Assembly: GCA_026125595.1 (NCBI GenBank)
Contig: JAHCKV010000002.1
Coordinates: 1-34,071 of the forward strand
Length of the DNA: 34,071 bases
Direction of reading: 5' to 3'
Source: Burkholderiales bacterium
GTDB lineage: Bacteria; Pseudomonadota; Gammaproteobacteria; Burkholderiales; Ga0077523
In this document: piece by piece, positions 4,757-34,071 of the stretch
Position numbering within the stretch: position 1 is the first letter of the stretch
Layout: every line of letters begins with the position of its first letter
The notes under the pieces: model-generated
What the model saw: the letters and a program-made list of their open reading frames with translations, nothing else
Database searches by the model: none
What the model was told of the DNA's origin: nothing
Translations under genes and position numbers: made by a program

Positions 4757-4758
4757 GG

Positions 4759-6450
4759 TTACGAATCGCCGGACTTCAATCGCGCCATCAGTTGTCGCAG
4801 CCGCGGATCGGTCGGTTCGGCCGGCGCCGCGGTCGGTCGGGTCGGTGCCCGCGCACGTGACGGTCCGCCGACTGCGATCAACGAGCGCAGATTCGCGACG
4901 CAGCGACGCGCCAGCATGGCGATGGTCGTCGGTTCGAGGACAGCGGGATGATGGCGCCACAGCATCTGCAACTGCCCGTCGCGGACGAATGCCACCACCT
5001 CCAGCGCATGGCCGCGCGCGGCGGCGGGATCGCGTTGCGCCGGCACCGGCTCGGCCGCGAGGCCGCGGATGAAGCCCGTCGCGGGCAGTTCGATGCGCCC
5101 CAGATAGTTGAAACTCACGGTGGCCGGCGACGCCGGCACACGACCCGCCATGCGCAATACGCCGTAGCCGATGCCGGCGTTCGGCACCGCGCCGCGGCAG
5201 GCCTTGACCGCATCCAGCTGGCGCTCGACGGCATCGCGCGGAACCTCGAGGCGCAGCGGATACTGCGCCGTGAACCAGCCGACGGTGCGTGACACGTCGA
5301 GGCGAGCGTCGAAGCCCTGCCGGCCATGGCTTTCGACATCGACGGTCACGGCATCGCCGCGCGTCCACTGACACAAGGTCTGGGCCAGGGCCGTCAGCAG
5401 GATGTCGTCGATGCCGGCCGCGAGCCGCGGCGGTACCGGTCCGAGCAGATCCGCCGTCGCCTCGGCATCCAGCGCGACGGCCGCTTCGACAACGTCGCCC
5501 TCGACCATCCGGGCCGCATCCACCACCCGCAACGGCAACGGAACGGACGGGCGGCACGCGCGAAGCCAGTGGTCGACTTCCGCTTCGAAGCGCGGCCGCT
5601 CGGCGGCCAGGTGCGTCGTCCAGGTGCCGAATCCCGTGCCCTCGGCCCACGCCACCGCCGACCCGCCCCGCAACGTGTCGACATCCCGCACCAGGTCAAG
5701 CAGCAGCACGCGCCACGACACGCCATCGACCACCAGGTGATGGGCGACCAGCAACAGCCGGGCGCCGCGGCTCGTGCCGAGATCGAACAGCACGGCGTGA
5801 AACAGCGGTCCGTCGGTCAGATCGAGGCCCGCTTGCGCAGCCGCGATCGCGGTCCGCAACGCCGCCAGCGGATCCGCCGCCGTCGACAGATCGATCCGTT
5901 GCAGCGGCACCGACACGGCATCGCGATCGGCATGCCATTGCCGCCATTCGCGCCCACCACCGCCGTCGTCGACGGCCTCGAAGCGCAACCGCAATGCGTC
6001 GTGCCGATCCACCAGCGTCTGCAGGGCGGCCCGCAGCCGCTCCGCGTCGAGTGCCGGATCCACGTCGAGCAGCAAACTCTGATTGTGGTGCTGCGGCCTG
6101 CCCGACCCGCGCCCGAGGAATGCCCATTGCATCGGGCTCAACGGCGCCGCCCCGGTGGCCGCCGTCGTCGCATCGGCGTTCGGCAATGTGATCGCCGTCG
6201 CCGCGGCCGCCTGTCCGGCCACCGTCTGATGCTCGAAGATCTGTGCCGGCGTCAGCGCCATGCCGTCGCGATGGGCCTGCGCGACGATCTGCATGCCGGA
6301 TACCGAGTCACCGCCCCGGTCGAAGAAATTGTCGTGGATGCCGATGTCCTGTCGACCGAGCACATCGCGCCAGATCGCCAAAAGTCGTTGCTCGGCGGCG
6401 TTACCCACCGCAGCCCGGTGTCGCCGGGCCGGCAGCACCGGCGCGGGCAA
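4759..6450 (-). CDS. NRPS module, C-terminal segment: T (PCP) - E (epimerization) - short C-terminal tail
   Basis: Frame of ORF 4759..6450 (TTG). It begins ALPAPV, which is the expected continuation of NGKVDRR. T ~6230-6420: NFFDRGGDSVSGMQI (Ser codon 6304-6306; the GGDS form is typical of carriers feeding E domains). E ~4800-6150: LSPMQWAFL, HHNQSLLL, AHHLVVDGVSW (~5715-5745). TAA 4761-4759. Confidence 0.9.
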   Translation of the reverse strand: MPAPVLPARRHRAAVGNAAEQRLLAIWRDVLGRQDIGIHDNFFDRGGDSVSGMQIVAQAHRDGMALTPAQIFEHQTVAGQAAAATAITLPNADATTAATGAAPLSPMQWAFLGRGSGRPQHHNQSLLLDVDPALDAERLRAALQTLVDRHDALRLRFEAVDDGGGGREWRQWHADRDAVSVPLQRIDLSTAADPLAALRTAIAAAQAGLDLTDGPLFHAVLFDLGTSRGARLLLVAHHLVVDGVSWRVLLLDLVRDVDTLRGGSAVAWAEGTGFGTWTTHLAAERPRFEAEVDHWLRACRPSVPLPLRVVDAARMVEGDVVEAAVALDAEATADLLGPVPPRLAAGIDDILLTALAQTLCQWTRGDAVTVDVESHGRQGFDARLDVSRTVGWFTAQYPLRLEVPRDAVERQLDAVKACRGAVPNAGIGYGVLRMAGRVPASPATVSFNYLGRIELPATGFIRGLAAEPVPAQRDPAAARGHALEVVAFVRDGQLQMLWRHHPAVLEPTTIAMLARRCVANLRSLIAVGGPSRARAPTRPTAAPAEPTDPRLRQLMARLKSGDS

Positions 6451-9549: not shown

Positions 9550-10635
9550 TCAACCCGCGGTCACATCCGTCGTCGGGCCGACGGCGGCAGCCGTGCGATC
9601 GGCCAATGTCTTCAACGCGTTCAGATAGGGCAGTGAACCCATCACGGCGTCGTGGTCCTGCAGGAAATCGATCAGCGCGCACACTTCATCGACCCCCGCC
9701 GCCTGCAGCGACTGCACGAACGGCAGGCAGCTCTGTGGCGTTCCGATCAGCGATCGACCCTGCATGAAACCTTCGACGCCGAACTCGAGCAGGCTGTCCA
9801 GATCGTCGTTGGAAAAATCGTCGAGCCGGATCTCCAGACCCATGCCCTTCGCGAGGTTCTCGAGCAATCCGTAGTGGGTCTTCAGATAGGCGCAGAACGG
9901 CTGACGAACATCGTCCTTCACGCGCGCGAGCTCCGGCCCGAGGAACGTGTGGATCATCATCGAGACGGTGCGCGTCGCCGGATCGTGACCATGCTGGCGC
10001 AGTGCCTCGCGGTAACGCGCGATCTTCACCGCGACCTGATCCAGCGTTTCGCCCAGCAGCGACGTCAGCACGTGGGCGCCGCGACGACCGGCTTCGAGGA
10101 ACGTCTCGATCGACGTGCAGGTCACCCATACCGGCAGCTCCGGCTGGATCGGCCGCGGCAGCGTGCGGCATTCGACGACACGACCGGTGGCATCTTCGAA
10201 TTCCACGGCCTCGCCGCGCCACAACCGCTGGATCGCGTCGACGTTGCGCCACATCACCCCCTTGCGGGCGCCGTGCGGCTCGCGTGACAGGATGAATTCG
10301 TCCATGGTCCAGCCGGATGCGACGGCGATCGCGGCGCGGCCGTTCGACAGGTTGTCGACGACGGACCAGTCCTCGGCGATGCGCACCGGGTGCTGCAGCG
10401 GCAGCACGGCGCTGCCGGCCCGCAGTTGCACGTGCCGCGTCACCATCGCCAGCGCGGCGCTGGTCAGCGCCGGGTTCGGATACAGCCCGCCGAAGGCGTG
10501 GAAATGCCGCTCCGGCGTCCAGACCGCCGTGAAACCGTTGTCATCGGCGAAGCGCGCGCTGTCGATCAGCAACCGGTAGTGGCCCGGACCGGCGGTGGAA
10601 CCGTCGCCGTCGAAATAGAACAGACTGAATTGCAT
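9550..10635 (-). CDS. Free-standing flavin-dependent luciferase-like monooxygenase (LLM), natural-product-associated subtype
   Basis: ATG 10635 to TGA 9552-9550, 361 aa, with clean non-repetitive composition. It starts MQFSLFYFDG...YRLLIDSARFADDNGFTAVWTPERHF and ends ...AAGVDEVCALIDFLQDH. As far as I recall, this start and the DEvaCLIDF-like C-terminal signature mark the LLM subfamily usually found fused into or next to PKS/NRPS megasynthases. Confidence 0.82.
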   Translation of the reverse strand: MQFSLFYFDGDGSTAGPGHYRLLIDSARFADDNGFTAVWTPERHFHAFGGLYPNPALTSAALAMVTRHVQLRAGSAVLPLQHPVRIAEDWSVVDNLSNGRAAIAVASGWTMDEFILSREPHGARKGVMWRNVDAIQRLWRGEAVEFEDATGRVVECRTLPRPIQPELPVWVTCTSIETFLEAGRRGAHVLTSLLGETLDQVAVKIARYREALRQHGHDPATRTVSMMIHTFLGPELARVKDDVRQPFCAYLKTHYGLLENLAKGMGLEIRLDDFSNDDLDSLLEFGVEGFMQGRSLIGTPQSCLPFVQSLQAAGVDEVCALIDFLQDHDAVMGSLPYLNALKTLADRTAAAVGPTTDVTAG

Positions 10636-19697: not shown

Positions 19698-22600
19698 GGC
19701 GCGAAGAGACCGTGAATCTCGAAACGCGACGTGCCGGCGTCGACCCGCTGCGACAGCTGCACCGTTCGCGGACCGTCCAGCCGCAGCGCCTGGTGGAAAT
19801 CCACATGCTCCAGCACGATCGTGCCGGCCACACCGCGGCTGCGCACCGCCGCGATCGTCATCTCCACGAAGCCGGCCGCGGGCAGTACCACGGTGCCGAA
19901 CACCGTGTGATCGGCCAGGAACGGCGATGCGGCAGCGTCGATGATCGCTTCATGGTGTTGCCCCTCGCTGCGCGCCAATCGCAGGGCCCGCCCCAGCAAC
20001 GGATGGTCGTGCGGCAGCGTCGATCGGTCACGCCGGCTGGCGGGCCGGGCCGTCGTCGGCCCGTCGATCCAGTGCCGTTGCCGCTGGAACGGATAGGTCG
20101 GCAGCGGGACGTGCCGCGCGACGGGCTCCGGCCGCGACGGTCGGGCACCGAGCACGTGCAGCCGGCCGACGCTCGACGCGAACACGGCGCGATCGTCGTG
20201 GCCGCGGCGCAGACTGGCCAATGTGCGTGTCGGCGGCAGCGGCAGCCATCGCTGGGCAAGCCCGATCAGGTGCGGCTGCGGTCCGATCTCCAGCAACGTG
20301 TCGCAACCCAGGGTCAGCAGTTGCTCCATCGCGGCCTGGAAGCGGACCGGTCGGCGCACGTGATCGATCCAGTAGAGCGGCGACGGTGCCGTCAACGGTT
20401 CGCCGGTGACGGTGGATAGCATCGGCAACCGCGGCGTGCGGACCACGATGCCGGCGACACTCGCGCCGAAGGCATCGAGCATCGGTGCCATGGCCGGCGA
20501 ATGGAACGCGTGGGACACCGCGAGCGGCACGCATTCGATACCGCGGTCCCGCAACCGCGCCGAAGCGCGTTCCAGCGCCGCGGTTTCGCCCGCGATCACG
20601 ACGCGGTCCGGCGCGTTGTATGCCGCGATCACGACACCGTCCTGCAGCGCCGGCGTCACGGCATCCGCGTCCGCCATCACGGCGACCATGCCACCCACGG
20701 CCGGCAACGCCTGCATCAGCCGGCCCCGCGCCGCCGTCAATCGCAGACCGGTTTCCCAGTCCATCGCATCGACGGCGACGGCGGCCGCGAACTCACCGAC
20801 GCTGTGACCGACCACCGCATCGGGCTCGATGCCCCAGCTGCGCCACAGCTCGGTCAACCCGAGCTGGATCGCGAACAATGCCGGCTGCGCGTAGTGGATC
20901 GTCCGATCCCGTTGCGTCGCTGCGGCGCCCCCCGCTTCGAACAGCAGATCCGTCAGCACGATGCCGGTCTCGGCCCGCAACAGTTCGGCGCAGCGGTCGA
21001 GCGCGCGGCGGAACACCGGTTCGGTGGCATACAGCTCGCGACCCATGCCGGCGTACTGCGAACCCTGACCGGTGAACAGGAACGCGATCTTCGGCCGCGC
21101 CGTCCCATGGCCCGTGTCGATCGCGGCATCCGGCTGTCCGGCCAACCACCGTTCGAGTCGACGACCGGCGTCGACCGCGCGCGCCGCGACGAGGGCCAGC
21201 CGATGCGGGAAACGGGTCCGCTGCCGATCGGCGCCGATGCAATGGCTCGACCAGTCGGTGGCCGGATCGCACAGCAGCAACGCATGCCGCCGCGCGAGTT
21301 CGGCCAGCGCGGCGGGATCCCGCGCCGACAGCAGCAGCGCCGCGGGCGCGTCGCCCGCGGCCGCGGCCGGCGCCGTCGACGGTTCCGCGACCGGCGACGA
21401 TTCGAGCACCACATGGGCATTGGTGCCACTGAAGCCGAACGAACTGACCCCGGCGAATCGCGGTCCGTCCGTCTCCCACGGCTGCGCGCTGCGCGGCACG
21501 TCGATCGGCAGCGACGACCAGTCGATATGGGGGCTGGGCATCGTGAAATGCAGGTGTGCCGGCAACATCCGGTGCCGCAGCGCGAGCGCCACCTTGATCA
21601 GGCCGCAGATACCGGCCGCGGCCTCCAGATGGCCGACGTTGGTCTTCACCGAACCGATCCGCAGCCGCGGGCCGTTCCGGTGGCTGTCCGCGAACACCGC
21701 GCCCAGCGCGCCGACTTCGATCGGGTCGCCCAGTGCCGTGCCGGTGCCGTGGGCCTCGATGTAGCTGACCTGACCCGGTTCGATCCGCGCATCGCGCAAC
21801 GCCTGGCGGATCACGGCCTGTTGCGCCGGTCCGTTCGGTACCGTCAAGCCGCCGCTGCGACCGTCCTGATTGACCGCGGCGCCGCGCACCAGCGCGACGA
21901 TGTCGTCGCCGGCCGCGATGGCATCGGACAACCGCTTCAGCACCACGACGCCGCAACCCTCGGCCCGCGCGAATCCGTCGGCGGTGGCCGCGAACGCCTT
22001 GCAGCGCCCGTCGGGCGACAGCATGTGGGCGCGCGAAAAATTGATGCTGAAGGCCGGCGACAGGATCCGGTTCACGCCGCCGACCAGCGCCGCTTCGCAT
22101 TCGCCGCGCCGCAGGCTCTGCACCGCGAGCTGCACCGCGACCAGTGACGACGAACACGCGGTGTCGACGATCAGGCTCGGCCCGGTGAAGCCGAACGTGT
22201 ACGACAGCCGTCCGGCCGCGACGCTGTGCGCGTTGCCGGTCGCGAGATAGGCATCGATCGCGTCGTCGGGGCGCGCCAGCAGATGATGGGAGTAGTCGTT
22301 GCTGCTGATGCCGACGAACACGCCGACGGGACGACCGGCCCAGTCGCCCGGCACGACACCGGCATGCTCCATCGCCTCCCAGCTGACTTCCAGCAGCAGC
22401 CGCTGCTGCGGATCGAGGCTCGCGGCCTCCTTCGGCGCGATGCCGAAGAACGCGGCGTCGAACGCCGCCGGGTCGTCGATGAAGCCGCCCTCGCGCGTCA
22501 CGATGCGGCCCGGCGCATCGGGGTCCGGATCGTGGAACGCAGCGGCATCCCAGCGATCGGGCGGCACCGGTCCGATCGCATCCCGCCCTTCGACCAGCAA

Positions 22601-22805: not shown

Positions 22806-25800
22806 TCACCGGTTCGACCCGGCGGGGGCAGCGTCGAGCAACCGGTCCAGCGCATCGAGCCGGTCGTCGAGCAGATCCTGCACCGCGCGGCCATCGACTC
22901 GGGGGGGTAGCGTAGCGTCGGCCGCTTCGACCCCGCCGCCCGCATCACGTGACCCGATCGACGCCGGTTCCGCGGCCGGCACGGCGAACTGCGACTGCAG
23001 ATGCGCCAGCAGCGCATCGGTGGTCGGATAGTCGAACACCAGCGTCGCCGGCAGCACGATGCCGAGGTCGGTCTGCAGACGGTTCTTCAGTTCGAGCGCC
23101 GTCAGTGAATCCAGGCCCAGATCGAAGAAACCGGATCGACGGTCCAGTTCCGCCGGGGCGAACCCGAGCGTCTGCGCGATCGCGGCACACACGTAGTCGT
23201 CCAGCAGTCGCGCGCGTTGCGCAGCATCGGCCGCAAGCAATCTGTCACGCAGGCCACCAGCCGGCACCGCCGCGGCGGGCAGTGCCGTACGCACCGTCGC
23301 GGCGGTCGCCGCAAGTTCGGCGAACAACGGCAGCGCCCGCAACCGCGGCTTCGCCAGTAGCGCGTCCCACGCGATCGGCAGCACGCCGACCTCGGCCCCG
23401 TCGCGATGCCAGACGCGATCGAGCCAGTCGAGACCGTCCTGCGGCGCGATGAACCCGACGCCGGGTAGGCCGCTGACGCGATCGTTGTGTCGATAGCGCA
23501 ACGCCGACCCGACGCCCGACCACGCGCCCCAGTCGATGCTGAGCGCCGGCAACCCGAGCCCACGACGGAATCGCGCGAGGCCGTCGAGGAATGCGTTGGC
23601 GGCCCCGTGGTTGGCCTGCCCCGGCGCGCCGATCATGCCGGCCGCCGATGCGAACAGCACGAAGCAATCGAGGTCGAGAGGTGCCGTCAGCGTATGCAGA
23701 TGCCAGCCGCCCGCGACCTTCGGCGCCAGCACACGCGACAGGCCCGCCGGCGGCAACTGCTGCAACAGCGCGTCTTCGAGAACGCCGGCTGCATGCACGA
23801 CGCCACGCAGCGGCGGCAAGCCATCGGTGCCGGCCGCGATGTCGTCCATCACCCGCGCGAGGGCCGCACGATCGGCGACGTCGACCGCGCGCAGATGAAC
23901 CCGGACCCCGTCGGCGCGCAACGCCCGCACCGCTTCGGCACCGGCATCGACCGACCGGCCCAGCAGCATCAGATGGCGCGCGCCGCGCTCGACCATCCAG
24001 CGCGCCACCAGCGAGCCGAGCCCCCCGAGGCCGCCGGTGATCAGATAGGTCGCGTCGGACCGGAATCGGGGCACTTCCGGCGCCGGTGCCGGCGGCACGT
24101 CGTCGACGACCACGACCTTGCCGACATGCCGCGCCTGCTGCACGGTGCGGAACGCGTCGACCACCGCGTCGCGCGTAAACCGCGTCACCGGCAGCGGCTT
24201 CCAGTGACCGGCGTCGACCTGCCGGACGATCTGTTCGAGCAGCGCCTGCACGGCTGCGGGCTGGTCCCGGCACAACGCCGACAGGTCGACGCGGTGGAAC
24301 GCGAGATCCGGCCACCGCGACGCCACTTCGGCATCGGTGAGCCCGGCGCCCTTGCCGATGTCGATGAAGCGGCCGCGCGGCTGCACCGCCGCGAGACTGG
24401 CACGCTGCAGTTCACCGGGTTGCGCGCTGAGCACGACATCGACGCCGCGACCGTCGGTGATCCGCAGGATCTCGTCCGCGAAGGCCGGCGTGCGCGAATC
24501 CATCACGTGCTGCACGCCCAGTCGTTCCAGCGCGGCCCATTTGCCGCGACTCGCGGTCGCGACGATCTCCGCACCCGCGGCCTGCGCGATCTGGATCGCA
24601 GCCTGACCGACACCGCCGGTGCCTGCGTGGATCAGTACGCGCTCGCCGGGCTGCAACCGCGCGAGCTGCAGCAGGCCATGCGCCGCCGTGCCGAAGGCCA
24701 CCGGCAAGCTCGCGGCCGACGCGTCGTCGACGCCCGCCGGCACCGCGACGACCAGCGCCTGATCGACCGTCACCTGACTGTCGAAGCCGTGTGGCGCGAG
24801 CGCCATGACACGATCGCCGATCGCGAAGCGCTCGACCTGCACGCCGATCGCGACGACCTCGCCGACGCATTCGCAACCCAGGGCCGCCGGGTCCGGATAC
24901 TGTCCCATCGCGATCAGCACATCGCGGAAGTTGACACCGGTGGCACGCACGCGGAGCCGCACCTGGCCCGCGGCCGGCGCGACGACGGCACCGGCGTGCC
25001 ACGCGAGGCTCGCGATCGAGCCCGCCGCGGTTGTCACCAGTCGCTGCGGCCGATCCGTTGCCGGCATCGCCGCGGGCCGCAACCTGCCACCTGCCGCACG
25101 CCGTCGACCACGCGGACCTGGGTTTCCGGCCGGTCGGCCGCGAACTCCCGCAACCAGTCGTCGACGGTCGCACCGAACACGGCGGCACTGCATCTGGGTG
25201 CTCCAGATCGCGCTTTTGCACGAAGCCCCACAGCGCGGAGTGCGCGACCGCCGCCGTTGCGTCGTCGGTCTGCCGGCAAAATACAACCGCGGCGCCTCGG
25301 GCCATCGGGACACCGTTTGCACCAACTCGAGCGCCTGCCGGCACAACCCCTCGACGGTCTCGGGCACCGCGTCGGGCACCACCGTCGACGGCAACACGAC
25401 GACGACCCGTCCGATGCCATCGGCATCCGGTGGCACCGCGTCGGCTGCGGTGGCACGTCGCATGACGGACGCTCCCTGGTCGCGCAACCCATCGGCGACT
25501 TCGACCGCCGACGCATCGTCGCCGATCACGAGCCACGACCCCGTCACGACGGACGGCCGCCGCGCAATCAGCACCGACTGCACCAGCGCACGGTCGCCCT
25601 GCACCGCCTGCGGCTGCTCGAAACCGGTATCGCGCAACAGCGCCTGCCACTGGGCGACCGACAGCAACGGGTGGGCGGGCCGGCGCGCGACGTCGGTGAA
25701 CTTCCACCAGCCCGGCATCGTGCCGAACACGAGATCCAGCCAGCGCAGCGCGGTAGTCGCTTCGAGCAGCAGCAGCAGGCCGCCGGGTGCCAGCAGCGTG

Positions 25801-27791
25801 TGCACCTGGCGCAGCGTGCGTTCGAGATCGGCCGTCGCGTGCAGCACGTTGGCGGCGACGATCACATCGAACCCGGCCGGATCGAGACCGCTTGCGGTCT
25901 CCGGTTGCTCGATGTCGAGGACCGTGCAGCGGATGAACGGATAGCCCGCAAAGCGCGTGCGCGCCGCGTTCACGAAATGCGCGGACACGTCGCTGAACAC
26001 ATAGTCGACGGGACCGATCGAGGCCAGCATCGGCAACAGGTGGGCCGTCGTGCCGCCAGTGCCCGCGCCGATCTCGAGCACCCGCAACGGGCGGCCATCG
26101 ACCGGTGTCGCGATCGACTGCCGCAACGCCTCCTGCAGCAATGCGTTCATGACCCGCGCACCGGCCGACGCTTCGTACAGCGCGGTCAGCAGCGTCGGAT
26201 CACCGCCGGGGAACAGCAATTGCAGCGGATCGACGCGACCCTGCAGGATCGCATCCAGTTCATTGCCGCAGCGGCGCAACAGTACCGACTCCGGCGCGGC
26301 CGCGACACCGCCGTCCGCCGGCGGCGGGGACAGCGGGATATCGGCGATCGGCGGCCACGCGGCTGCTTCGTCCGGCGCGACGCCCGCGCCGGCGAGCATC
26401 GCGACGCAGCGCGCGAACAGCGGCTGCCGGGACGGCTCGACCCCGAGACGGACCGCCAGTTGCGCGACCGACCCGGTCCGATCGGTCAGCGCGTTCCAGC
26501 CCAGTCGCCGCAACGCGTGAGCCGCATAGGTAACGCTCGACGCTTCGAGATCCGGCTGCAGCCGCTGGTAGTCGACGACATCCGGACCGGACAACAGCGC
26601 CGCCCACCGCGGCAACGTTCGCTCGCGCACGTCGTCGGGCGACCGCAGCAGCGTCGACGCCAGTGGCTGCGGCGGCCACGCCACGTCGTACAGCGCGGTG
26701 ACCGGCATCGGATCTTCGACCGGCCTGGCCGCCACCGTGACGAGTCTCAGACCGCGCAGCCACCCGAGCAGGGTGCCGTCGTCCGCGAACCATTCGATAT
26801 CGACCGATGGTTCGTCTCCGCCATCGCGGCAACGCGCGCGGACCCACGCCGGTACCGCCTCGCGGGCACCGAACCAGGCGAACGCGTCGACGGATCTCGG
26901 CAGCCGTGTGCGGTCATCCGAAATGACGAGGCCGGTCAACTGCAGGCCGGCATCGACCAGCACCGGATCGGGCGTGAGGGCCGCCGTCGCGCGCCGGTCT
27001 GCCGTCAGCCGCGCCAACGCTTCACCGGGACCGAAGGCGATATCGTCCAGCACCCGGAATGCGGCGCCGTACCGGATGCCGCGGGCGGCGAAGCGCGCGT
27101 AGAAATCCGCCGCCGCGAGTCGGTCCGGCAGATGGGCGAGCGCGGGCGGTTGGATCGAGGGCGCCCTGTCGCGCGGTGCCGGGACGAGATCGCCTTCGGC
27201 GTGCAACGTCCAATGGGCGTCCACCGCGCTGTGCAGTTCGAACCGTTGACCGTCGGCTTGCCGATGCACTGCGGTCTGCACGCGGACGCCGCCTTCCTCC
27301 GGCAGCCACAGCCCTTGGGCGAGCGTGACGCCGCGCAACTGGCAATCATGTCCGGACAGCGCGTGGCCTGCGGCCATCGCGAGGCACAGGTATCCGGCCG
27401 CCGGAAACAGCGTCGACTCGAACACGCGGTGATCGGACCACGGAATGCCGGTGGTCCCGTCGATCACCGCCTCGAATACCCGGATGGCATCGCCGGCCAG
27501 CGGCAACGGACGGCCCGGCAGCGGATCCGCACCACGGTCCGCAGCCGGTGGCGCGCCGATCACCGGCACCGCATCGAGCCAATGCCGACGTCGCTGGAAC
27601 GGATAGCGTGGCACGTCGACTCGCCGCCGGTTGCGCCCGGCATCGAACCCGGACCAGTCGACCGGCACGCCGGCTTCGTACAACGCCGCGAGACTGGTCA
27701 GCATGCGTTCCCAATCGGGCGCTGCGCCGCCGCGACCCGCACCGCCGGCACGCAGACTCGGCAACCACAACCGTCCGCCGCCGCCGAGACA
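22806..27791 (-). CDS. Type I PKS module 1, C-terminal segment: post-AT linker - DH - cMT - ER - KR - ACP
   Basis: Frame of ORF 22806..28784, meaningful from [14 protein letters not shown] (27791); upstream of that the ORF is out-of-frame AT. A 22-codon bridge LPGCDVCIEIGPQPVLLALAAG lies in a third frame (27793-27858). Linker [10 protein letters not shown] ~27580-27610. DH ~26700-27540: [32 protein letters not shown]. cMT ~25600-26250: [37 protein letters not shown]. Scrambled patch 25085-25278. ER ~24090-25010: [24 protein letters not shown] ~23520-24060: [37 protein letters not shown] ~23010-23220: [14 protein letters not shown], Ser codon 23106-23108. TGA 22808-22806. Confidence 0.88.
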
Positions 27792-30352
27792 ACCCTGCGG
27801 CCAGCGCCAGCAGCACCGGCTGCGGTCCGATCTCGATGCAAACGTCGCAGCCGGGCAAGCGCGTCCAGCGTCGCCATCGCGTCCATGAACGCGACCGGCT
27901 GCCGGATCTGGTCGACCCAGTAGCCGGCGGCGGCGGCCTCGGCGCCGGCGAGGCCGCCGGTCATGCTGGAGATGAAATCGATCCGCGCGGCACCGAACCG
28001 GACGGCATCGGCATGCCGGCGGAACGCCGGCTGCATCGGCGCCATCAGCGCCGAATGAAACCCGTGCGACACAGCGAGCCGCGTGGTCGGAAGGCCGCGG
28101 GCTTCGAGCGCGTTCAGCGCCGCACCCAGCGCAGCGGACGGGCCGGCGATCACGGTATGGGCCGGACCGTTGCACGCGGCGATCTCGACACTTTCGGGCA
28201 GCAACGCGGCGAGGTCTTCGCGGGACGCGCGCACCGCCGCCATGCCACCGGCCGTCGGCAACGCGTGCATCAATCGCGCCCGCGCCGCGAGCAGGCCCAG
28301 CGCCTGGGGCAGATCGACGATGCCCGCCTCCACCGCCGCCGCGTATTCGCCGACGCTGTGCCCGACGACGATCTGCGGCGCGACACCCCACGACCGCCAC
28401 AGCGCGGTCAACGCGTACTGCAGCGCGAACAGCGCCGGCTGCGTGAAGACGGTGGCATCGATGTCGGCCGACGCCGCGACCGTGCCGTCCGGATACAGCA
28501 CCGACCGCAGCGGCCGCTGCAGCATCGGATCGACGATCGCGGCGCACCGGTCGATGGCGTCGCGGAACACCGGCGCGCGTTCGTACAGCGCACGGCCCAT
28601 CTGCACGTACTGGGCGCCCTGCCCGGTGAACAGGAACGCGATTCGCGGCGCGGCGCGGTGCCCGACTTCGGTCGACGGCGTTGCCGCCGCGCGGTCGAGC
28701 TGATCGCGCAGACCCGCTCCATCGGCGGCGACCCACGCGCGACGCAGTGCGAAGTGCGACCGTCCCGTGTTGGCGGAAAAGCACAGATCGGCCAGTGCGA
28801 CGCCGTCTTCACCGAGCGCGTCCCGGTAGCGGGCCACCTGTTCGGCCAGCGCGGCCGGCGACCGTGCCGACACCGCCAGCACATGCAACGGACGATCGAC
28901 GGTGGCAGACACCGCCGGCCGGGACGGCGGCGCTTCCTCGACGATCAGATGCACGTTGGTGCCGCTCATGCCGAAGCTGCTGACACCACCGCGCCGCGGT
29001 CCGGCCGTCGCCGGCCATTCGGTCAGCGCGGTGGGCACGGTGAACGGCAGGCGCGCCCACGGAATCCGTGGACTCGGCGTCGCGAAATGCAGATGGGCCG
29101 GAATCTGCCGATGCTGCAACGACAGGACCAGTTTCATCAGGCCGGCGACACCCGCCGCGCCTTCGAGATGACCGAAATTGGTCTTCACCGAACCGATCAA
29201 CAGCGGCGTTGCGCGCCCGGCGAACACGTCGTTCAGCGCCATGACTTCGATCGGATCGCCGAGCGGCGTCGCGGTGCCGTGGGCCTCCACGTACTGCACG
29301 TCGGCCGGCTGCAAGCCGGCCCGTTGCAGCGCGGCGCGGATCACCGCAGTCTGTGCCGGTCCGCTGGGCGCGGTCAATCCGTTGCTGGCGCCATCGTGGT
29401 TGACCGCCGACCCGCGCACGACCGCGAGCACGCGATCACCGTCGGCCAGCGCGGCCGACAGTTTTTTCAGCACGACGATGCCGCAGCCTTCGCCGCGAGC
29501 ATAGCCCTGGGCCGCTGCGTCGAACGTGCGGCAACGGCCATCGGGCGCCAGCGCGCCCAGTCGGCAGAACCCGATCGTGGCCTCCGGCGACAGCATCAGA
29601 TTGACACCGCCGGCCAGCGCCAGCGTCGCTTCACCGTCGCGCAGGCTCTGGCAGGCCAGATGCACGGCGAGCAACGACGACGAACACGTCGTGTCCAGTT
29701 GCAGCGTCGGCCCCTGCAGACCGAACACGTACGCGATGCGGCCGGCGGCGATGCTGCGGTTGGTGCCGAGACTGCTGTGGGCATCGATGCGCGTCGGATC
29801 GCCGGAGCGCACGCTGCGCTGCGCGTAGTCGTCGAAGCAGACGCCGACGAACACGCCGGTGGCACTGCCGCGCAGATCGAACGCCGGCAGGCCCGCGTGT
29901 TCGAGCGCTTCATGGGTGACTTCCAGCAACAGGCGCTGCTGCGGATCCATCCGGTCGGCCTCGCGTGGCGCGATGCCGAAGAACTGCGGATCGAACTGGT
30001 CGACCTGGTCGAGAAAGCCACCGTGCCGGACATACATCGTGCCGGGTCGCGTCGGATCCGGATCATGGTAGCGATCGATGTCCCACGCGCGCGACGGCAC
30101 TTCGCCGATCGCATCGACACCGTTTTCCAGCAGTCTCCAATACGCTTCCGGCGTGTCGGCACCGCCCGGGTAGCGGCATGCCATGCCGATGATCGCGATC
30201 GGTTCGGCGGTCCGCGGCGTCACCTGCCGCTCGACGGCCTCCAGTTGCGCGCGCAACTGGCGGATCTCGACCGTCGCCTGCCTCAGCAGATCGCGCATCC
30301 GGTTGGGCTCGGCGGCCGCCGATGGCGCGGCCCCATGGGATTCAATCGCCAT
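27698..30352 (-). CDS. Type I PKS module 1, N-terminal segment: docking helix - KS - AT (malonyl-like). Same gene as 22806..27791, interrupted by two apparent +1 frameshifts
   Basis: ATG 30352-30350 shares its A with the upstream TGA. It is in frame with ORF 27698..30835, whose first 161 aa are an out-of-frame overlap. MAIESH...RMRDLLRQATVEIRQLRAQLEAVER forms a coiled-coil. KS ~28930-30205: IAIIGMACRYPGG, DTTCSSSLLAVH (Cys codon 29684-29686), EAHGTATPLGDPIE, GSVKTNFGHLEGAAG, GTNVHLIVEEAP. AT ~27860-28650: FLFTGQGAQY, GHSVGEYAAA, VSHGFHS. The homology-supported reading leaves this frame at 27859, so the tail to the nominal stop at 27698 is R/A-rich nonsense. Confidence 0.88.
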   Translation of the reverse strand: MAIESHGAAPSAAAEPNRMRDLLRQATVEIRQLRAQLEAVERQVTPRTAEPIAIIGMACRYPGGADTPEAYWRLLENGVDAIGEVPSRAWDIDRYHDPDPTRPGTMYVRHGGFLDQVDQFDPQFFGIAPREADRMDPQQRLLLEVTHEALEHAGLPAFDLRGSATGVFVGVCFDDYAQRSVRSGDPTRIDAHSSLGTNRSIAAGRIAYVFGLQGPTLQLDTTCSSSLLAVHLACQSLRDGEATLALAGGVNLMLSPEATIGFCRLGALAPDGRCRTFDAAAQGYARGEGCGIVVLKKLSAALADGDRVLAVVRGSAVNHDGASNGLTAPSGPAQTAVIRAALQRAGLQPADVQYVEAHGTATPLGDPIEVMALNDVFAGRATPLLIGSVKTNFGHLEGAAGVAGLMKLVLSLQHRQIPAHLHFATPSPRIPWARLPFTVPTALTEWPATAGPRRGGVSSFGMSGTNVHLIVEEAPPSRPAVSATVDRPLHVLAVSARSPAALAEQVARYRDALGEDGVALADLCFSANTGRSHFALRRAWVAADGAGLRDQLDRAAATPSTEVGHRAAPRIAFLFTGQGAQYVQMGRALYERAPVFRDAIDRCAAIVDPMLQRPLRSVLYPDGTVAASADIDATVFTQPALFALQYALTALWRSWGVAPQIVVGHSVGEYAAAVEAGIVDLPQALGLLAARARLMHALPTAGGMAAVRASREDLAALLPESVEIAACNGPAHTVIAGPSAALGAALNALEARGLPTTRLAVSHGFHSALMAPMQPAFRRHADAVRFGAARIDFISSMTGGLAGAEAAAAGYWVDQIRQPVAFMDAMATLDALARLRRLHRDRTAAGAAGAGRRVVSAAADGCGCRVCVPAVRVAAAQRPIGNAC

Positions 30353-33300
30353 CAGCGCCGACCCGGTCCGGCACCGGTGATCTCCGCGGCCAGCAGATCC
30401 GCCAGCTCCGCTTCCGACAGATCGTCCAGGTCGGCATCGGCCCCGGCCGTTGCGACGGATCGACCCGCGGACGTCGCGAAATCGGTCACCGGTGGCGCTG
30501 CAGCCCCGAGTTGCGCCAGGTGCTCGGCCAACGCGTGCAGCGTCGGATGGTTCCACGCCAGCGTCGGCTCGAGCGGATCCGCCAACGCCAGTTCGAGCTC
30601 CAGATCCCGCGCCAGCTCGACGGCCATCACGGAATCGACGCCGTAGTCGGCGAACGCCTTGTGCGGATCGATGTCGGTCTCGGGGAACCGCAGGTGCCGC
30701 GCCAGCCACGTGGTCAGCCAACGCCGGATCGTCGCGGCGCTGCGCGCCACCGCGGGTGCCGGCTGTCCGCTTTCGCCCGATGCCGGCGCCGGCGTTGCGC
30801 CGCGCGGCGATGCGGTGCCGGCCCGTCGCAGCCACGCATCCAGATCGCCGTCTTCACCGGCCAGCGCCTGCTCGATGTCGCCGATGCTGTCGCGATAGCC
30901 GGCGATCCATTGCGTGACGGCGCCAGGGGACAGCAGCACCGATTCTTCCGCCGAGTCGCGCAACGCGCGGTCGGCCGCGATGTCGAAGCGCGCCTGCGTC
31001 CAGTCCATGCCACGCCGCCACCCCGCGTCACGCACGGCCGACGCCCCGAGCGCGGCGCGCACGATGGCCCACGCGGCCACCTCGCCGACCGCGACGCAGG
31101 TCCGCCGTTGCGCGGTCACCGCATCGACAAAGGGCGCCGACGTCGTCGCGTGGCGCGCCGCCGCCCGCTCGGCGACGGACCGCAATGCCGACGCGATATC
31201 CGGCATGCCGAGCGCATCGGCGAGAAATCCGTCCAGCGTCGCCGGTTGCCGCAACGTCCGGGCGCCGAGATACATCGCGAGCGCCTCGGTCGGTCCTTCG
31301 AAGATCCGCAGGACCCGCGCATCGCGCAGCATCTGCGGCGCGAGATTGGTCTCGATGTAGCCGCGACCGCCGAGGCATTGCATCAGGTCGTCGGTCGCGC
31401 GCCAGTACCACTCGGGACCGAGAATCTTGCACGCGGCATAGACTTCTTCGGGCACCGCGGCACCGCGATCGAGGCGCTCGCACACGGCATCGACCAGTGC
31501 GCCGAGCGCGGTGATGCCCGCCGTGAGGCCGCTGAGTCGCGTGAGCGTGACCGGATGATCCAGCAACCGGCCGGTCGCGATGGAGCGCCGTGCGCCGTAG
31601 CGCAACATCAACTGCGCGCAGCGCTTCATGCCGCCGACGCAGGCGGCCGCGATCGTCAGCCGGCCGTACATCATCGCGTCCTGGGCGACGGCCATGCCTT
31701 CGCCGGCGCCGCCCAGCCGGTCCGCCGCTCCGACCGGAACGTCGTTCAGATGCACGGCGTTCTGCACCATGCCGCGCATCCCCATGGTCGGCGCTTCGGC
31801 GCCCTGCCGCAGTCCCGGTCGCCCCTTGCGCACCGCGAATCCGCTGATGCCGATTGCATGGCCGCTGCCGTCGACTTCGCGGACGAACACGTGGGTGACG
31901 CCGGCCCACGCGGCGGAGCCGCTCCAGATCTTCGTGCCGTTCAGCGACCAGCCGCCGGCCCGCGGCGTCGCCGACGCCGTGATGCCATGGGGATGGGAGC
32001 CCGCCCCTTCTTCGGTCAGTGCGAACGCCGCCAGCTCCCGGCCGGCAGCCAGTTGCGGCAGCAGCTCGTCGCGCAGCGCCGCATCGCCATGGCGCAGGAT
32101 CGGCCGCACGCCCAGCACGTTGTTCAGGCCGACGAACAGGCCGAGCGTCGCATCGATCGCGCCGAGCTGCTCGATCACCTGCCGCATCGCCCGGTGTCCG
32201 AAGCCGAGGCCGCCGTGGCTCGCCGGCACCTGCATGCCGAGCAGGCCGCGATTGCCGAAGTCGAGCACGACGCCGGGCGACAGACTGCGGCGCTCGTCCA
32301 TCAGCCGGGAATTCAGCGACGTGTCCGCGTAGTCGCGCAGCCATTCGAGCAGCGCCGCCGGCGCGGCGGCCACGGCCGGCTCGACCATCGCCGCCGGCTT
32401 CGAAACCGGAACCGCCACCACGCCGTCCAGTGGCCAGCGCGCCAGCGACGTCAGTTCGCCGGCCGCGAAATCCGCGGCGCAGCGCCGGCGCCGCACCTTG
32501 CCGCTCGGCGTCTTCGGCAACGATCCCGGCTTGACCAGCACGATGACCCGCACCTGCAGACCATGGTCCCGTGACACGGCGGCGCGAATCGCATCGAACA
32601 CGGCTGCCGGCTCGAGCCGGCGCCAGGCCTCGCGCTCGACTTCATGGACGACGACGAGCCGGGGCTCCTCGTCATGATCGACGGTGAAAGCCGCGCCGCC
32701 GCCGGTGGCGAGATCCGGGTGGCTGTGCTCGACGCTGAGCTCGATGTCCTGCGGCGCATGGTTGGCACCGCGGATGACGATCAGGTCACGCAGCCGGCCG
32801 GTCACGTACAGCGCGTCTTCATGGCGGAAACCCAGGTCGCCGGTGCGCAGGAATGGCCGCGGGTCGTTCCCGGTCGCGAGGCGGCCGTCGAACACTGCGG
32901 CACTTCCGGCCTCGGACCGCCAGTATCCCGGCGCGACACTGGCACCGGTCACCCACAGCTCACCGACGTGTCCGTCTTCGACCGGGCGCCGCGTGGACGG
33001 ATCCACGACGCGCAGTTCGAGCCCGTCGACGACGCCGCCGCAGGCCACCAACGGCTGCGCCGTCGCACTCGTCGTCGGCACCATCTGCACGCGGTCGCCG
33101 CGCAACGCATCGCGATCGACGTGCAGCGTCGTCGGCTGCCCGTGCCGCCGGACACCGGACACCATCAGCGTCGCTTCGGCCAGGCCGTAACACGGCAGGA
33201 ACGCCTCGGCGCGGAATCCGTGGGCGGCAAACGCGGCGGCGAATCGCTTCAGCGTACCGCTGCGAACAGTCTCGGCGCCGCTGAACGCGACGGTCCATGG

Positions 33301-34071
33301 ACTCAGGTCGAGACCTTCGCGATCCTGCGGCGCGATGCGGCGCAGGCAGTGCTCGTACGCGAAATTCGGCCCGCCACTGGTCGTGGCACGGAAATGGGAG
33401 ATCGCTTCGAGCCACCGTACCGGCCGGCGCAGGAACGCCGCCGGCGCCATCAGCGTCACCGGGAACCCGCTGAACACCGGCTGCAGGATCCCGCCGATCA
33501 GTCCCATGTCGTGATAGGGCGGCAGCCAGATCACGCCGCGGCTGTCCGGCCCATGGCCGAATACGCGGTGGATCACGCCGAGGTTGTGGTGCAGGTTGGC
33601 GTGGGTCACGCAGACCCCCTGCGGCTGCCGGGTCGACCCCGACGTGTACTGCAGCATCGCGATGCCGTCGACCTCGACCGCGGCGACGTCATGGCCGATC
33701 GTGGCGTCCGGCAACCGATCGGTCTCCCAGCACGGCACGGCCGAACCGGCGCAGTGGCCCGCGTGGATCAGCAGCGGCCCCAGCGCGTCGCGCAGCTTCG
33801 CCGTCGTCAGCACCGCCGCCGGCACCGCATCCGCGACGATGTGCTGCCAGCGATCGGCATCCTGATGGCGACGCGGCGGCGGCACCGGCACGGCGATCAG
33901 TCCGGTCTGCAGGCACGCGAAAAAACCGGCGACGAAATCGAGCCCCGGCGGATACACCAGCAAGACCCGCGGCCGCTCGCCTCCCGCTGCCGGCGGACCG
34001 AAGTGCTCGCACAGCACGCGGGCGATGGCACCGGCGCGCCGGTGCAGATCGCCATAGGTACACGCGATCGC
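30352..34071 (-). CDS. Loading protein: fatty acyl-AMP ligase (FAAL) - acyl-CoA/ACP dehydrogenase (ACAD) - ACP tridomain; 5' end lies outside the window
   Basis: The frame is open from the window edge (AIACTYGDLHRRAGAIARVLCEHF...) to TGA 30354-30352. ORF-track entry 30352..34017 is the same frame from an internal GTG. FAAL ~32428-34071: LQYTSGSTRQPQGV (STRxPxG variant typical of FAALs), PPYHDMGL, FLRTGDLGF, LPKTPSGKVRR. ACAD ~31258-32355: FALTEEGAGSHP, LNGTKIWSG, RIFEGPTE (position of the ACAD catalytic Glu). A spacer of about 170 aa has no motif I recognise. ACP ~30508-30741: FADYGVDSVMAVEL, Ser codon 30631-30633. Confidence 0.9.
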   Translation of the reverse strand, partial: AIACTYGDLHRRAGAIARVLCEHFGPPAAGGERPRVLLVYPPGLDFVAGFFACLQTGLIAVPVPPPRRHQDADRWQHIVADAVPAAVLTTAKLRDALGPLLIHAGHCAGSAVPCWETDRLPDATIGHDVAAVEVDGIAMLQYTSGSTRQPQGVCVTHANLHHNLGVIHRVFGHGPDSRGVIWLPPYHDMGLIGGILQPVFSGFPVTLMAPAAFLRRPVRWLEAISHFRATTSGGPNFAYEHCLRRIAPQDREGLDLSPWTVAFSGAETVRSGTLKRFAAAFAAHGFRAEAFLPCYGLAEATLMVSGVRRHGQPTTLHVDRDALRGDRVQMVPTTSATAQPLVACGGVVDGLELRVVDPSTRRPVEDGHVGELWVTGASVAPGYWRSEAGSAAVFDGRLATGNDPRPFLRTGDLGFRHEDALYVTGRLRDLIVIRGANHAPQDIELSVEHSHPDLATGGGAAFTVDHDEEPRLVVVHEVEREAWRRLEPAAVFDAIRAAVSRDHGLQVRVIVLVKPGSLPKTPSGKVRRRRCAADFAAGELTSLARWPLDGVVAVPVSKPAAMVEPAVAAAPAALLEWLRDYADTSLNSRLMDERRSLSPGVVLDFGNRGLLGMQVPASHGGLGFGHRAMRQVIEQLGAIDATLGLFVGLNNVLGVRPILRHGDAALRDELLPQLAAGRELAAFALTEEGAGSHPHGITASATPRAGGWSLNGTKIWSGSAAWAGVTHVFVREVDGSGHAIGISGFAVRKGRPGLRQGAEAPTMGMRGMVQNAVHLNDVPVGAADRLGGAGEGMAVAQDAMMYGRLTIAAACVGGMKRCAQLMLRYGARRSIATGRLLDHPVTLTRLSGLTAGITALGALVDAVCERLDRGAAVPEEVYAACKILGPEWYWRATDDLMQCLGGRGYIETNLAPQMLRDARVLRIFEGPTEALAMYLGARTLRQPATLDGFLADALGMPDIASALRSVAERAAARHATTSAPFVDAVTAQRRTCVAVGEVAAWAIVRAALGASAVRDAGWRRGMDWTQARFDIAADRALRDSAEESVLLSPGAVTQWIAGYRDSIGDIEQALAGEDGDLDAWLRRAGTASPRGATPAPASGESGQPAPAVARSAATIRRWLTTWLARHLRFPETDIDPHKAFADYGVDSVMAVELARDLELELALADPLEPTLAWNHPTLHALAEHLAQLGAAAPPVTDFATSAGRSVATAGADADLDDLSEAELADLLAAEITGAGPGRR

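Follow-up and report, generated by a model that had tools for sequence, protein, structure and literature searches.

The stretch of DNA analysed here – the window, 34,071 nucleotides of a Burkholderiales contig (JAHCKV010000002.1) – encodes a polyketide-peptide assembly line headed by a protein that combines a ligase, a dehydrogenase and a carrier. The locus raises the question of how such a line acquires its first acyl unit and in what oxidation state. We favour, with moderate confidence, the reading that this protein (the loader) is the lipoinitiation protein of the hybrid line, in which a FAAL would load the starter, an ACAD would desaturate it and the first ketosynthase (KS1) would receive it.

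The loader is encoded by one uninterrupted reading frame (30352-34071, minus strand; 1239 codons plus a TGA stop and no internal stops in the translation of the window), its 5' end cut by the contig end. The chain runs from FAAL to ACAD, then through a spacer of ~165 aa to the ACP, and every Pfam match exceeds its gathering score: AMP-binding (aa 4-384, 1.6e-53), the DIP2-like AMP C-terminal subdomain (AMP-dom_DIP2-like, aa 429-542), Acyl-CoA_dh_N (aa 573-677), Acyl-CoA_dh_M (aa 682-778), Acyl-CoA_dh_1 (aa 790-938) and PP-binding (aa 1118-1185, E 9.3e-11). A single frame with these matches bears out the preliminary description of three functions in one polypeptide, and the motifs it quoted are all found in the translation: YTSGSTRQPQGV at aa 142-153, RIFEGPTE with Glu925 and YGVDSV with Ser1147. 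No aligned relative departs from the loader at Glu925 (catalysis), Ser1147 (carrier) or Lys525 (adenylation). These observations establish the domain identities of the loader.

The ligase part comprises the following features.

32788..34071, minus strand: FAAL N-terminal (large) subdomain, aa 1-428, Pfam AMP-binding
33613..33648, minus strand: phosphate-binding loop, aa 142-153, read from the sequence
33037..33153 (approximate), minus strand: FAAL-specific insertion, aa ~307-345, between A5 (YGLAE) and A6 (GELWVTG)
32425..32787, minus strand: FAAL C-terminal (small) subdomain, aa 429-549, Pfam AMP-dom_DIP2-like, with the A10 lysine Lys525

The FAAL N-terminus is absent because the contig ends. 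An earlier estimate of 40-50 lost residues is about right, since the alignment to the Ols FAAL structure 7r7e begins at its residue 39 against loader residue 3 and ~45 positions of the family consensus precede the first loader residue in the window, which puts the loss at ~36-45 residues. Consistent with assignment to the FAAL class, the spacing from A5 to A6 is 70 aa in the loader versus 44 and 46 aa in the window's two NRPS adenylation domains – an insertion of 24-26 residues at the known FAAL-specific site – and this stretch aligns to 7r7e without a large gap. The top matches of the FAAL part in a PDB sequence search were likewise all FAALs (7r7e at 6e-148, 3kxw, FadD32, FadD23, FadD28 and 3pbk). 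FAAL models are also the top single-enzyme NCBIfam models for the ligase part, though all score under their curated cut-offs (e.g. PRK05850, 423 versus 775 bits), as expected for a diverged, truncated and fused protein, so that no curated subfamily can be called. Among 34 aligned relatives, Y142, S144, G145, S146, T147, P150, G152 and V153 of the phosphate-binding loop are invariant, as are T521, S523, G524 and K525; the family consensus for the loop is YTSGSTGxPKGV, from which the window protein differs in having STRQPQGV instead of STGxPKGV. As we envisage the first step, the FAAL would adenylate a free fatty acid and, without CoA-ligase activity, move the acyl group to the phosphopantetheine of Ser1147 on its own ACP.

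FAAL-ACP didomain loaders (Ols, ambruticin AmbG, nocuolin NocH, mycosubtilin MycA) have no ACAD between ligase and carrier. Among solved structures the loader FAAL is nearest to that of Ols, and in both systems the cis ACP precedes a KS. What sets the loader apart from them is a central dehydrogenase unit.

31246..32355, minus strand: ACAD catalytic core, aa 573-942, with N, middle beta and C-terminal helical domains (three Pfam ACAD domains)
31918..31926, minus strand: Trp716-Ser717-Gly718 in KIWSGSAAWA, at the site of the dehydrogenase flavin-side motif W-I-T-N
31297..31299, minus strand: codon of Glu925, the predicted catalytic base, in RIFEGPTE

The best PDB sequence matches of the whole domain are the dehydrogenases ACAD9 (8.7e-40), VLCAD (1.8e-39) and IVD, and Foldseek searches with the AF2 model of the ACAD part (mean pLDDT 85) returned ACADs at E 1e-19 to 1e-22. 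Glu925 lines up with the Glu in LIFEGTNE of ACAD9, and alignments of 34 and 48 sequences show no variation at R922, F924, E925, G926, P927, T928 or E929; many further core residues and the Trp716 motif are also invariant in the 48, which span several phyla. Given this conservation, the ACAD is probably active, and the catalytic Glu context to which the preliminary description had pointed is supported. With Glu925 as base, the FAD-dependent ACAD would strip two hydrogens from the ACP-bound thioester, most plausibly yielding a 2-enoyl-ACP.

The invariant Trp716-Ser717-Gly718 (alignments of 34 and 48 sequences) suggests a variant of this step, with the same architecture and product, in which the ACAD acts as an acyl-ACP oxidase, with O2 in place of ETF as electron acceptor and formation of H2O2. 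Here Gly replaces the Thr of W-I-T-N, a Thr that the prolyl-PCP dehydrogenase and SCAD have at the equivalent position, and the best local PDB match of the segment is Arabidopsis acyl-CoA oxidase 4 (2ix5, KRWIGNSTFA), with Gly at the same position; the redox partner may therefore differ. The ACX4 structure paper reportedly ties oxygen reactivity to a small pocket by flavin N5/C4a and to extensions covering the ETF site. Most family members are moreover cyanobacterial, and cyanobacteria are reported to lack beta-oxidation enzymes, FadE among them (PMC11730487). Yet a single residue is insufficient to define the chemistry, the whole domain is closest to dehydrogenases, and the window's organism, a high-GC non-cyanobacterium, probably has ETF. 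We consider an oxidase fairly unlikely.

That the acyl-ACP is oxidised before it reaches KS1 had been predicted from the domain order. Order alone predicts nothing of the kind; the step is nonetheless reasonable and fits published proposals. ACADs of lipopeptide clusters probably work on FAAL- or ACP-bound acyl chains, according to a review (PMC9113097), and NocC and NocI, stand-alone cyanobacterial ACADs of the nocuolin/chlorosphaerolactylate locus, desaturate C6-C12 acyl-ACPs in vitro after a FAAL has put the chains on the ACP (PMC9486936). NocC and NocI are the sole experimental precedent we found for the chemistry proposed here; unlike the loader domains, they are separate proteins, and they are tied to a beta,gamma double bond (PMC9486936).

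This last point bears on regiochemistry. An active ACAD might give a product other than the 2-enoyl thioester, by introducing a beta,gamma (Delta-3) bond directly or through isomerisation, by forming a gamma,delta bond on an unsaturated chain, or by acting in trans on later ACP-bound intermediates. LipB is tied to the Delta-cis-3 bond of friulimicin (PMC9113097), NocC has been connected with the beta,gamma double bond in chlorosphaerolactylates (PMC9486936), and the authors of the nostovalerolactone study remark on beta,gamma double bonds in that pathway (PMC9324945); the NocC and LipB cases count against a fixed 2-enoyl outcome. Set against these, Glu925 occupies the canonical position for alpha-proton abstraction, and fusion to the loading ACP argues for the starter, not a later intermediate, as substrate. 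We regard a different double bond as unlikely and retain the 2-enoyl-ACP as the likeliest product.

The preliminary description had left ~170 aa between ACAD and ACP, at ~30745-31245, without an assignment; the stretch that we find without a Pfam domain, aa 943 to ~1105 (nt 30757-31245), matches it closely. Structure prediction with AF2, which had been suggested for this spacer, gave five helices followed by a low-confidence motif region and a linker.

30898..31245, minus strand: helical C-terminal extension of the ACAD, aa 943-1058, the main share of the spacer
30823..30897, minus strand: conserved motif YrdSIGDIEQaLAGEDgdLDawLRR, aa 1059-1083
30757..30822, minus strand: low-complexity Ala/Pro/Gly/Ser linker, aa 1084-1105

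The helical extension, modelled mostly at pLDDT >90, belongs to the ACAD: it is present in stand-alone ACADs as well, and the ACAD-plus-extension unit is also found alone and as ACAD-ACP. When it is included in the Foldseek query, VLCAD and ACAD9 rank first with 532-566 aligned columns, versus ~375 for short ACADs. These long, dimeric, mitochondrial enzymes, the best sequence and fold matches to the loader ACAD, share its I-F-E-G catalytic Glu motif and carry an extra C-terminal domain where the loader model places its ~120-residue extension; the bacterial long ACADs 2z1q and 3owa, grouped with them, likewise have an extra all-helical domain after the core. The long ACADs differ from the loader in acting on CoA thioesters and in having W-I-T where it has W-S-G. 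Their extra domain shows no detectable sequence or stand-alone fold similarity to the loader extension, and the extension searched alone had no significant match to VLCAD or anything else in fold, PDB-profile and Pfam searches, so homology is unproven. By its position the extension may cause the loader to dimerise, as its PKS partner does, an analogy that the empty searches leave weak.

A related reading takes the ACAD for a scaffold or dimerisation module without catalysis, much like moonlighting ACAD9, so that the starter would be handed on saturated. According to PDB titles ACAD9, the closest solved sequence relative, acts structurally in the assembly of complex I, and the extension could serve dimerisation alone. 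Invariance across phyla of the catalytic Glu, of the motif around it and of dozens of core residues would not be expected in a mere scaffold, and the occurrence of the ACAD-plus-extension unit outside the full fusion also speaks against it; we consider this reading very improbable and continue with a catalytic ACAD. In the motif that follows the extension, G1064, D1078 and L1081 never vary among 34 relatives, Y1059, I1063, E1067 and G1072 are at least 90% conserved, and both models give it low confidence (pLDDT 44-75). The linker (pLDDT <50) differs in length and sequence between relatives.

The chain ends in the carrier and a tail, and the loader gene runs directly into that of the putative recipient.

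30502..30756, minus strand: acyl carrier protein domain, aa 1106-1190, Pfam PP-binding
30631-30633, minus strand: phosphopantetheine attachment site Ser1147, motif YGVDSV
30355..30501, minus strand: C-terminal tail with the conserved acidic helix LSEAELADLLAAEI, aa 1191-1239
30350..30354, minus strand: TGATG, the loader stop overlapping the ATG of the first PKS gene
22833..30352, minus strand: first PKS module, KS-AT-DH-cMT-ER-KR-ACP (Pfam), recipient of the starter

The ACP is a four-helix bundle in the AF2 model, with D1146 and S1147 invariant among 34 relatives. In the tail, a helix is modelled at aa 1220-1233 (consensus LSExExAxLLAAELA, E1230 invariant), and the N-terminus of the partner PKS is predicted to be coiled-coil-like; the tail probably serves to dock the loader onto the protein that follows. 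The ACP and this helix would bring the starter to the Cys in the active site of KS1, in a translationally coupled, fully reducing, C-methylating module. KS1 keeps its catalytic Cys and His residues (DTTCSSS, HGTAT, NFGH), and a type I PKS ketosynthase lies directly downstream in 61 of 75 related loci, as in the window. Together with the overlapping TGATG, these observations support the role claimed for the loader in priming KS1. The neighbours of the homologues P0003, P0024, P0110 and P0078 are KS-AT-DH-cMT-ER-KR-ACP proteins of 2455-2628 aa. In the window, a second such module, a KS-AT-KR-ACP module, a luciferase-like monooxygenase and NRPS modules follow the first.

The first PKS translation begins MAIESHG and has no internal stop codons; by tblastn with the 2541-aa PKS adjoining homologue P0003, we traced a frame change between nt 27797 and 27866. 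Several frameshifts lie among the downstream megasynthase genes of the contig, affecting both PKS genes and the NRPS genes: besides that in the first PKS, there is one at ~nt 19715-19721, a split of the NRPS between A and PCP domains at nt 6401-6450 and a compensated pair near nt 1650-1745. The pathway in the source organism may therefore not be intact, and if all these were real mutations the loader would be an intact gene inside a decaying, non-functional cluster. We doubt this: codon-position GC bias is kept (nt 1-6800 examined), the reading frames followed had no stop-riddled stretches, and compensated frameshifts within ~90 nt typically stem from indels introduced in sequencing or assembly. 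The public runs that match give ~2-9 fold coverage here, and their contigs neither confirmed nor corrected the indels.

The premise that a ligase, a dehydrogenase and a carrier would normally come as separate proteins did not survive comparison. The same architecture is found in over 120 clusters of full-length proteins, 44-56% identical to the loader, and relatives are encoded in at least 155 species genomes – mostly cyanobacteria, with some Burkholderiales, Myxococcota and Chloroflexota. Published precedents also exist. NvlI of the nostovalerolactone (pks1) pathway in Nostoc punctiforme is drawn as a FAAL with an adjacent ACAD, the ACP being given in the figure legend, and is proposed to activate a fatty acid, octanoate, and to oxidise it ahead of elongation (PMC9324945). 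By its published description, in which function is a proposal, NvlI resembles the loader in heading type I PKS modules and in the activate-then-oxidise logic proposed for both; its downstream line differs in having no NRPS and in finishing in tetronate-like chemistry. The function proposed in print for the fusion is the same as that put forward here, and in the literature searched we found no experiments on any fused FAAL-ACAD-ACP family member. Enduracidin Orf45 is a FAAL-ACAD fusion (PMC9113097). By description, Orf45 and the ramoplanin and friulimicin (LipA/LipB/LipD) systems also use a ligase and an ACAD to supply an unsaturated acyl starter via a carrier (PMC9113097; bioRxiv 10.1101/2020.05.22.111625), but with a free-standing ACP and with an NRPS starter C domain in place of a KS as acceptor; in ramoplanin, friulimicin and related lipopeptides the FAAL, ACAD and ACP genes are separate.

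The claim of novelty accordingly fails: because the fusion occurs in at least 155 species and a published pathway already depicts it, the loader is an ordinary member of a widespread, known family. Relatives annotated 'AMP-binding protein' include those of Crocosphaera subtropica ATCC 51142 (P0078), Anabaena/Nostoc (P0110), Aquincola agrisoli (P0024) and Methyloversatilis thermotolerans (P0060). The family's FAAL-ACAD-ACP relatives align over 92-100% of the length and share the Pfam domains, the spacer and the helix at the C-terminus, and in most a KS-AT-DH-cMT-ER-KR-ACP module comes next; the Crocosphaera locus further resembles the window in having KS-AT-KR-ACP and NRPS genes close by. Within this family the window's loader forms a distinct lineage, with full-length identity of at most 56% to any relative.

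The loader gene lies on the minus strand of the window (34,071 bases, 70% G+C). Translation gives an open reading frame from nt 34071 to 30355 that encodes 1239 residues with no internal stop and is closed by a TGA at 30352-30354. Numbering residues from the first codon within the window, Pfam places the following domains in this chain:

aa 4-384, minus strand: AMP-binding domain (Pfam, 1.6e-53, above gathering score)
aa 429-542, minus strand: small C-terminal adenylation subdomain (Pfam, above gathering score)
aa 573-677, 682-778 and 790-938, minus strand: N, M and C domains of an ACAD (Pfam, all above gathering scores)
aa 1118-1185, minus strand: phosphopantetheine-binding (PP-binding) domain (Pfam, 9.3e-11, above gathering score)

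The 5' end of the frame runs past the contig edge, and comparison with the Ols FAAL structure and the family consensus indicates that ~36-45 N-terminal residues have been lost. The preliminary description had claimed a FAAL, an ACAD and an ACP in a single chain, quoting a motif for each, and a FAAL that lacked its N-terminus. Given the unbroken frame, the Pfam domains, the presence of the quoted motifs in the translation and an N-terminal loss of matching length, this observation is confirmed as written. Within the ACP, D1146 and S1147 are invariant in the family alignment. An AlphaFold2 (AF2) model covering aa 555-1239, computed from 48 sequences (mean pLDDT 85), contains the helices of the four-helix ACP bundle.

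Fatty acyl-AMP ligases (FAALs) make acyl-AMP and pass the acyl group to holo-ACP rather than to CoA, and they are distinguished by a FAAL-specific insertion, ~20 residues that the large subdomain carries between motifs A5 and A6. The loader ligase has the adenylation fold of the ANL superfamily, and its P-loop residues and the A10 lysine (Lys525) are invariant in the family alignment. All 15 of its best PDB matches are FAALs, including the olefin synthase loading domain (7r7e, 6e-148), a Legionella protein (3kxw), FadD32, FadD23, FadD28 and an E. coli protein (3pbk). FAAL models likewise head the NCBIfam single-enzyme matches (E 1e-127 to 1e-98, versus 1e-29 for typical CoA ligases), though none reaches its curated cut-off (e.g., 423 against 775), which leaves the domain without a curated subfamily assignment. 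The distance from A5 (YGLAE) to A6 (GELWVTG) is 70 residues in the loader, compared with 44 and 46 in the two A domains of the NRPS on this contig. This surplus of 24-26 residues coincides with the known site of the FAAL-specific insertion, which sets the domain apart from an acyl-CoA synthetase without the insertion, and the stretch is collinear with FAAL structures in alignment. Sequence comparison thus identifies the ligase domain as a predicted FAAL.

The solved proteins closest to the ACAD region by sequence are ACAD9 (E 8.7e-40) and VLCAD (1.8e-39). The three-part ACAD fold is supported by the AF2 model, which matches ACAD structures with E 1e-19 to 1e-22 and TMt 0.84-0.91. In ACAD9 and VLCAD the glutamate of the I-F-E-G motif is the catalytic base, and Glu925 of the loader (within RIFEGPTE) aligns with it. 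Alignments of 34 and 48 members from several phyla show R922, F924, E925, G926, P927, T928 and E929 to be invariant, together with dozens of core positions and, in the neighboring domains, the ACP Ser1147 and the adenylation Lys525. The ACAD could in principle serve as a non-catalytic scaffold; such conservation of catalytic and core residues makes this unlikely. Far from being degenerate, with the Glu925 context and core residues unchanged across 48 sequences, the ACAD domain looks active.

One flavin-contacting segment of the middle domain departs from the aligned dehydrogenases, in which it reads W-I-T-N. The loader has K-I-W-S-G-S, and W716, S717 and G718 (nt 31918-31926) are invariant in the family; the tryptophan is kept and a glycine occupies the threonine position (W-S-G-S). 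The best PDB match for this segment is Arabidopsis acyl-CoA oxidase 4, which has glycine at the same position. One interpretation, which we hold to be improbable, is that the built-in ACAD is an O2-using acyl-ACP oxidase within the loading module, freed from electron-transfer flavoprotein by the invariant glycine and by the private extension that follows the core. The invariant W-S-G, with a glycine at the flavin N5-side position in common with the plant oxidase, speaks for such an enzyme, as does a report that cyanobacteria lack beta-oxidation (PMC11730487). If true, an oxidase would explain how a ‘dehydrogenase’ can operate in cyanobacteria, given their lack of beta-oxidation, at the entry to a widely conserved family of pathways to unsaturated, methyl-branched lipopeptides.

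The extension itself, which the preliminary description had left as an unassigned spacer, occupies aa 943 to ~1105 between the ACAD and the ACP. The AF2 model has five confident helices over aa 943-1063, followed by a poorly modelled stretch, the ACP bundle and a last helix. Long dimeric ACADs of the VLCAD/ACAD9 type carry an additional helical domain of ~120-180 residues after the core. A Foldseek search ranked these proteins first (mouse and human VLCAD and ACAD9; 532-566 aligned columns, TMq 0.59-0.62), with short ACADs aligning over ~375 columns (TMq 0.48-0.51). This ranking and the number of aligned columns place the extension at the site of the extra VLCAD/ACAD9 domain. We considered the label ‘VLCAD C-terminal domain’ and rejected it, since an extension profile of 15 sequences retrieved nothing relevant from the PDB, a model of the isolated extension (AF2, pLDDT 81) matched only generic helical bundles there (E above 1) and no Pfam family matched at E up to 1. 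What we keep is the modelled description of an all-helical extension, placed as in VLCAD and ACAD9.

With the spacer alone as query, a search of 1.84 billion representative proteins returned 145 matches. Beyond three-domain chains, these include stand-alone ACAD-extension proteins (~550 aa), ACAD-extension-ACP didomains, one ACAD-extension-A protein and larger chains to which an aminotransferase or NRPS module is also fused. Its occurrence with the ACAD in such varied protein layouts indicates that the spacer is integral to one subfamily of assembly-line ACADs rather than a linker, and by this distribution the ACAD-plus-extension unit is a mobile module. The best conserved piece of the spacer, Y-x-x-x-I-G-D-I-E-Q-x-L-A-G-E-D-x-x-L-D-x-x-L-R (aa 1059-1083; window 30823-30897), has three invariant residues and falls in the low-confidence region of the model; the piece IGDIEQxLAGEDxxLDxxLR could be an interaction motif. 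Five homologues (P0134, P0212, P0252, P0166 and P0125) illustrate the range of contexts, with the ACAD and extension found alone, with an ACP, with an A domain, or in a FAAL-ACAD-ACP protein that also has a class I/II aminotransferase (oxoamine-synthase-like).

We then asked how widely the whole chain is distributed. Among the matches listed in a homology search, 119 relatives share its Pfam set, at 44-56% identity and lengths of 1175-1438 aa; query coverage is 92-100% for 118 of the 119 and 54% for the remaining homologue, P0109. A scan using one genome per species found loader relatives encoded by at least 155 genomes. The majority are cyanobacterial (Nostoc, Nodularia, Calothrix, Crocosphaera, Leptolyngbya, Planktothrix and others), and the remaining carriers include Burkholderia stagnalis, ubonensis and lata, Methyloversatilis, Aquincola, a Mycobacterium MAG, Polyangiaceae, Phototrophicaceae (Chloroflexota), Granulosicoccaceae and Thermoanaerobaculia. 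The best full-length relative among GTDB species representatives is from Aquincola agrisoli (56% identical). The preliminary description had read the sequence correctly, and its proposal that the loader desaturates an acyl-ACP before KS1 is sensible; its view of the fusion as unusual does not survive these counts. The loader is a new and moderately diverged addition to a large family that had been noticed before. An apparent oddity thereby receives an ordinary annotation, as the lipid loader for a PKS-NRPS cluster. What interest remains is real, if modest, and attaches to the family as a whole with its built-in dehydrogenase.

The genes that follow the loader fit this annotation. The loader stop codon overlaps the start codon of the next gene (TGATG), which encodes KS-AT-DH-cMT-ER-KR-ACP with the Cys and His residues of the KS retained. 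A second like module, a KS-AT-KR-ACP, a luciferase-like monooxygenase and NRPS genes leaving the other end of the contig complete the order. Two of these downstream features are:

9550-10635, minus strand: stand-alone luciferase-like monooxygenase, flanked by the last PKS module and the NRPS
2-4756, minus strand: long NRPS frame (C-A-PCP-C-A...) leaving the window start, detected through codon-position GC bias

At its C-terminal end, the protein preceding the latter frame has a second Condensation-type domain, which may be an epimerase. In one distant relative (P0138), a domain of the monooxygenase kind lies within an NRPS module that is joined to the loader (FAAL-ACAD-ACP-C-LLM-A-PCP).

This arrangement recurs elsewhere. 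Among related loci with enough downstream DNA, 61 of 75 have a type I KS downstream of the loader within 1.5 kb and on the same strand. One or two ~2500 aa proteins of the same composition follow the loader in an ENA metagenome relative, Aquincola, Anabaena/Nostoc and Crocosphaera ATCC 51142. The shared cluster type comprises the loader, two KS-AT-DH-cMT-ER-KR-ACP proteins, a KS-AT-KR-ACP and NRPS modules, of which one includes an oxidase domain. At locus L005 (CP000806.1 3166016-3189843), a marine cyanobacterium, Crocosphaera subtropica ATCC 51142, has the same cluster type as this 70% G+C contig. The literature searched contained no product for conserved clusters of this type, which join a loader to two fully reducing, C-methylating modules and then NRPS.

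Published descriptions provide several precedents for the loader. In the pathway proposed for nostovalerolactone, the FAAL of NvlI activates octanoate, the adjacent ACAD oxidises it and four PKS modules elongate the product; the figure legend lists FAAL, ACAD and ACP for NvlI, and the scheme is a model without enzymology (PMC9324945). By this description, NvlI has the same domain set as the loader at the head of a PKS line. A review notes the enduracidin protein Orf45 as a fused FAAL-ACAD and regards FAAL- or ACP-bound chains as the probable substrates of the ACADs in lipopeptide clusters, reporting no mechanistic study (PMC9113097). The stand-alone cyanobacterial ACADs NocC and NocI desaturate C6-C12 acyl-ACPs in vitro (PMC9486936). 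ACAD fusions are absent from the discussion in a 2025 FAAL review and in the 2026 FAALPred survey, and we found no biochemical study of a fused FAAL-ACAD-ACP protein in the literature searched.

The domain identities, residue conservation and PKS synteny are direct observations. In the best-supported reading, for which we infer the chemistry, redox partner, regiochemistry, oligomeric state and docking, the FAAL would load its own ACP with a free fatty acid, the ACAD would dehydrogenate the ACP-bound thioester and the ACP would then dock on the first PKS via a conserved C-terminal helix. The simplest product of the ACAD step would be the 2-enoyl thioester; a rival possibility is that the ACAD gives beta,gamma or other regiochemistry.

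Several genes downstream of the loader have interrupted frames on the minus strand. Comparison with an intact homologue places one frame change within the module 1 AT of the first PKS (nt 27797-27866) and another within the module 2 DH of the second (~nt 19715-19721); in relatives, the protein that each of them splits is a single chain of ~2500 aa. The NRPS is split by a frame change between A and PCP (nt 6401-6450), and a PCP at ~nt 1650-1745 reads GGHSLLAT, runs out of frame for ~20 residues and then returns to frame, as expected of a compensated indel pair. Compensated pairs of this kind suggest assembly indel errors rather than decay. Public runs, which yielded low-depth, fragmentary contigs, gave no restoration of frame and a single 3-nt difference at 19703. 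The loader gene is free of any such defect.

Exceptions to the synteny include four Burkholderia loci (L070, L074, L075 and L082) that have a loader relative with no PKS after it. In L070 (Burkholderia stagnalis), a Pfam scan of the locus found that the loader relative adjoins KAS III-like and metallo-beta-lactamase-fold genes. This suggests a different downstream use of the three-domain protein in Burkholderia. These neighbors led us to compare the B. stagnalis locus with the afc cluster, as a characterised Burkholderia pathway that might use the fusion, but we could draw no link: in the AFC-BC11 paper AfcA is described as a FAAL and no more, and the dehydrogenases are separate proteins.

Finally, up to 63% of sampled 31-mers from window 30352-34071 were found in plant metagenome runs, with lower shares in rhizosphere, groundwater and bioreactor metagenomes. 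These matches suggest that the source organism or its close kin is probably soil- or plant-associated.
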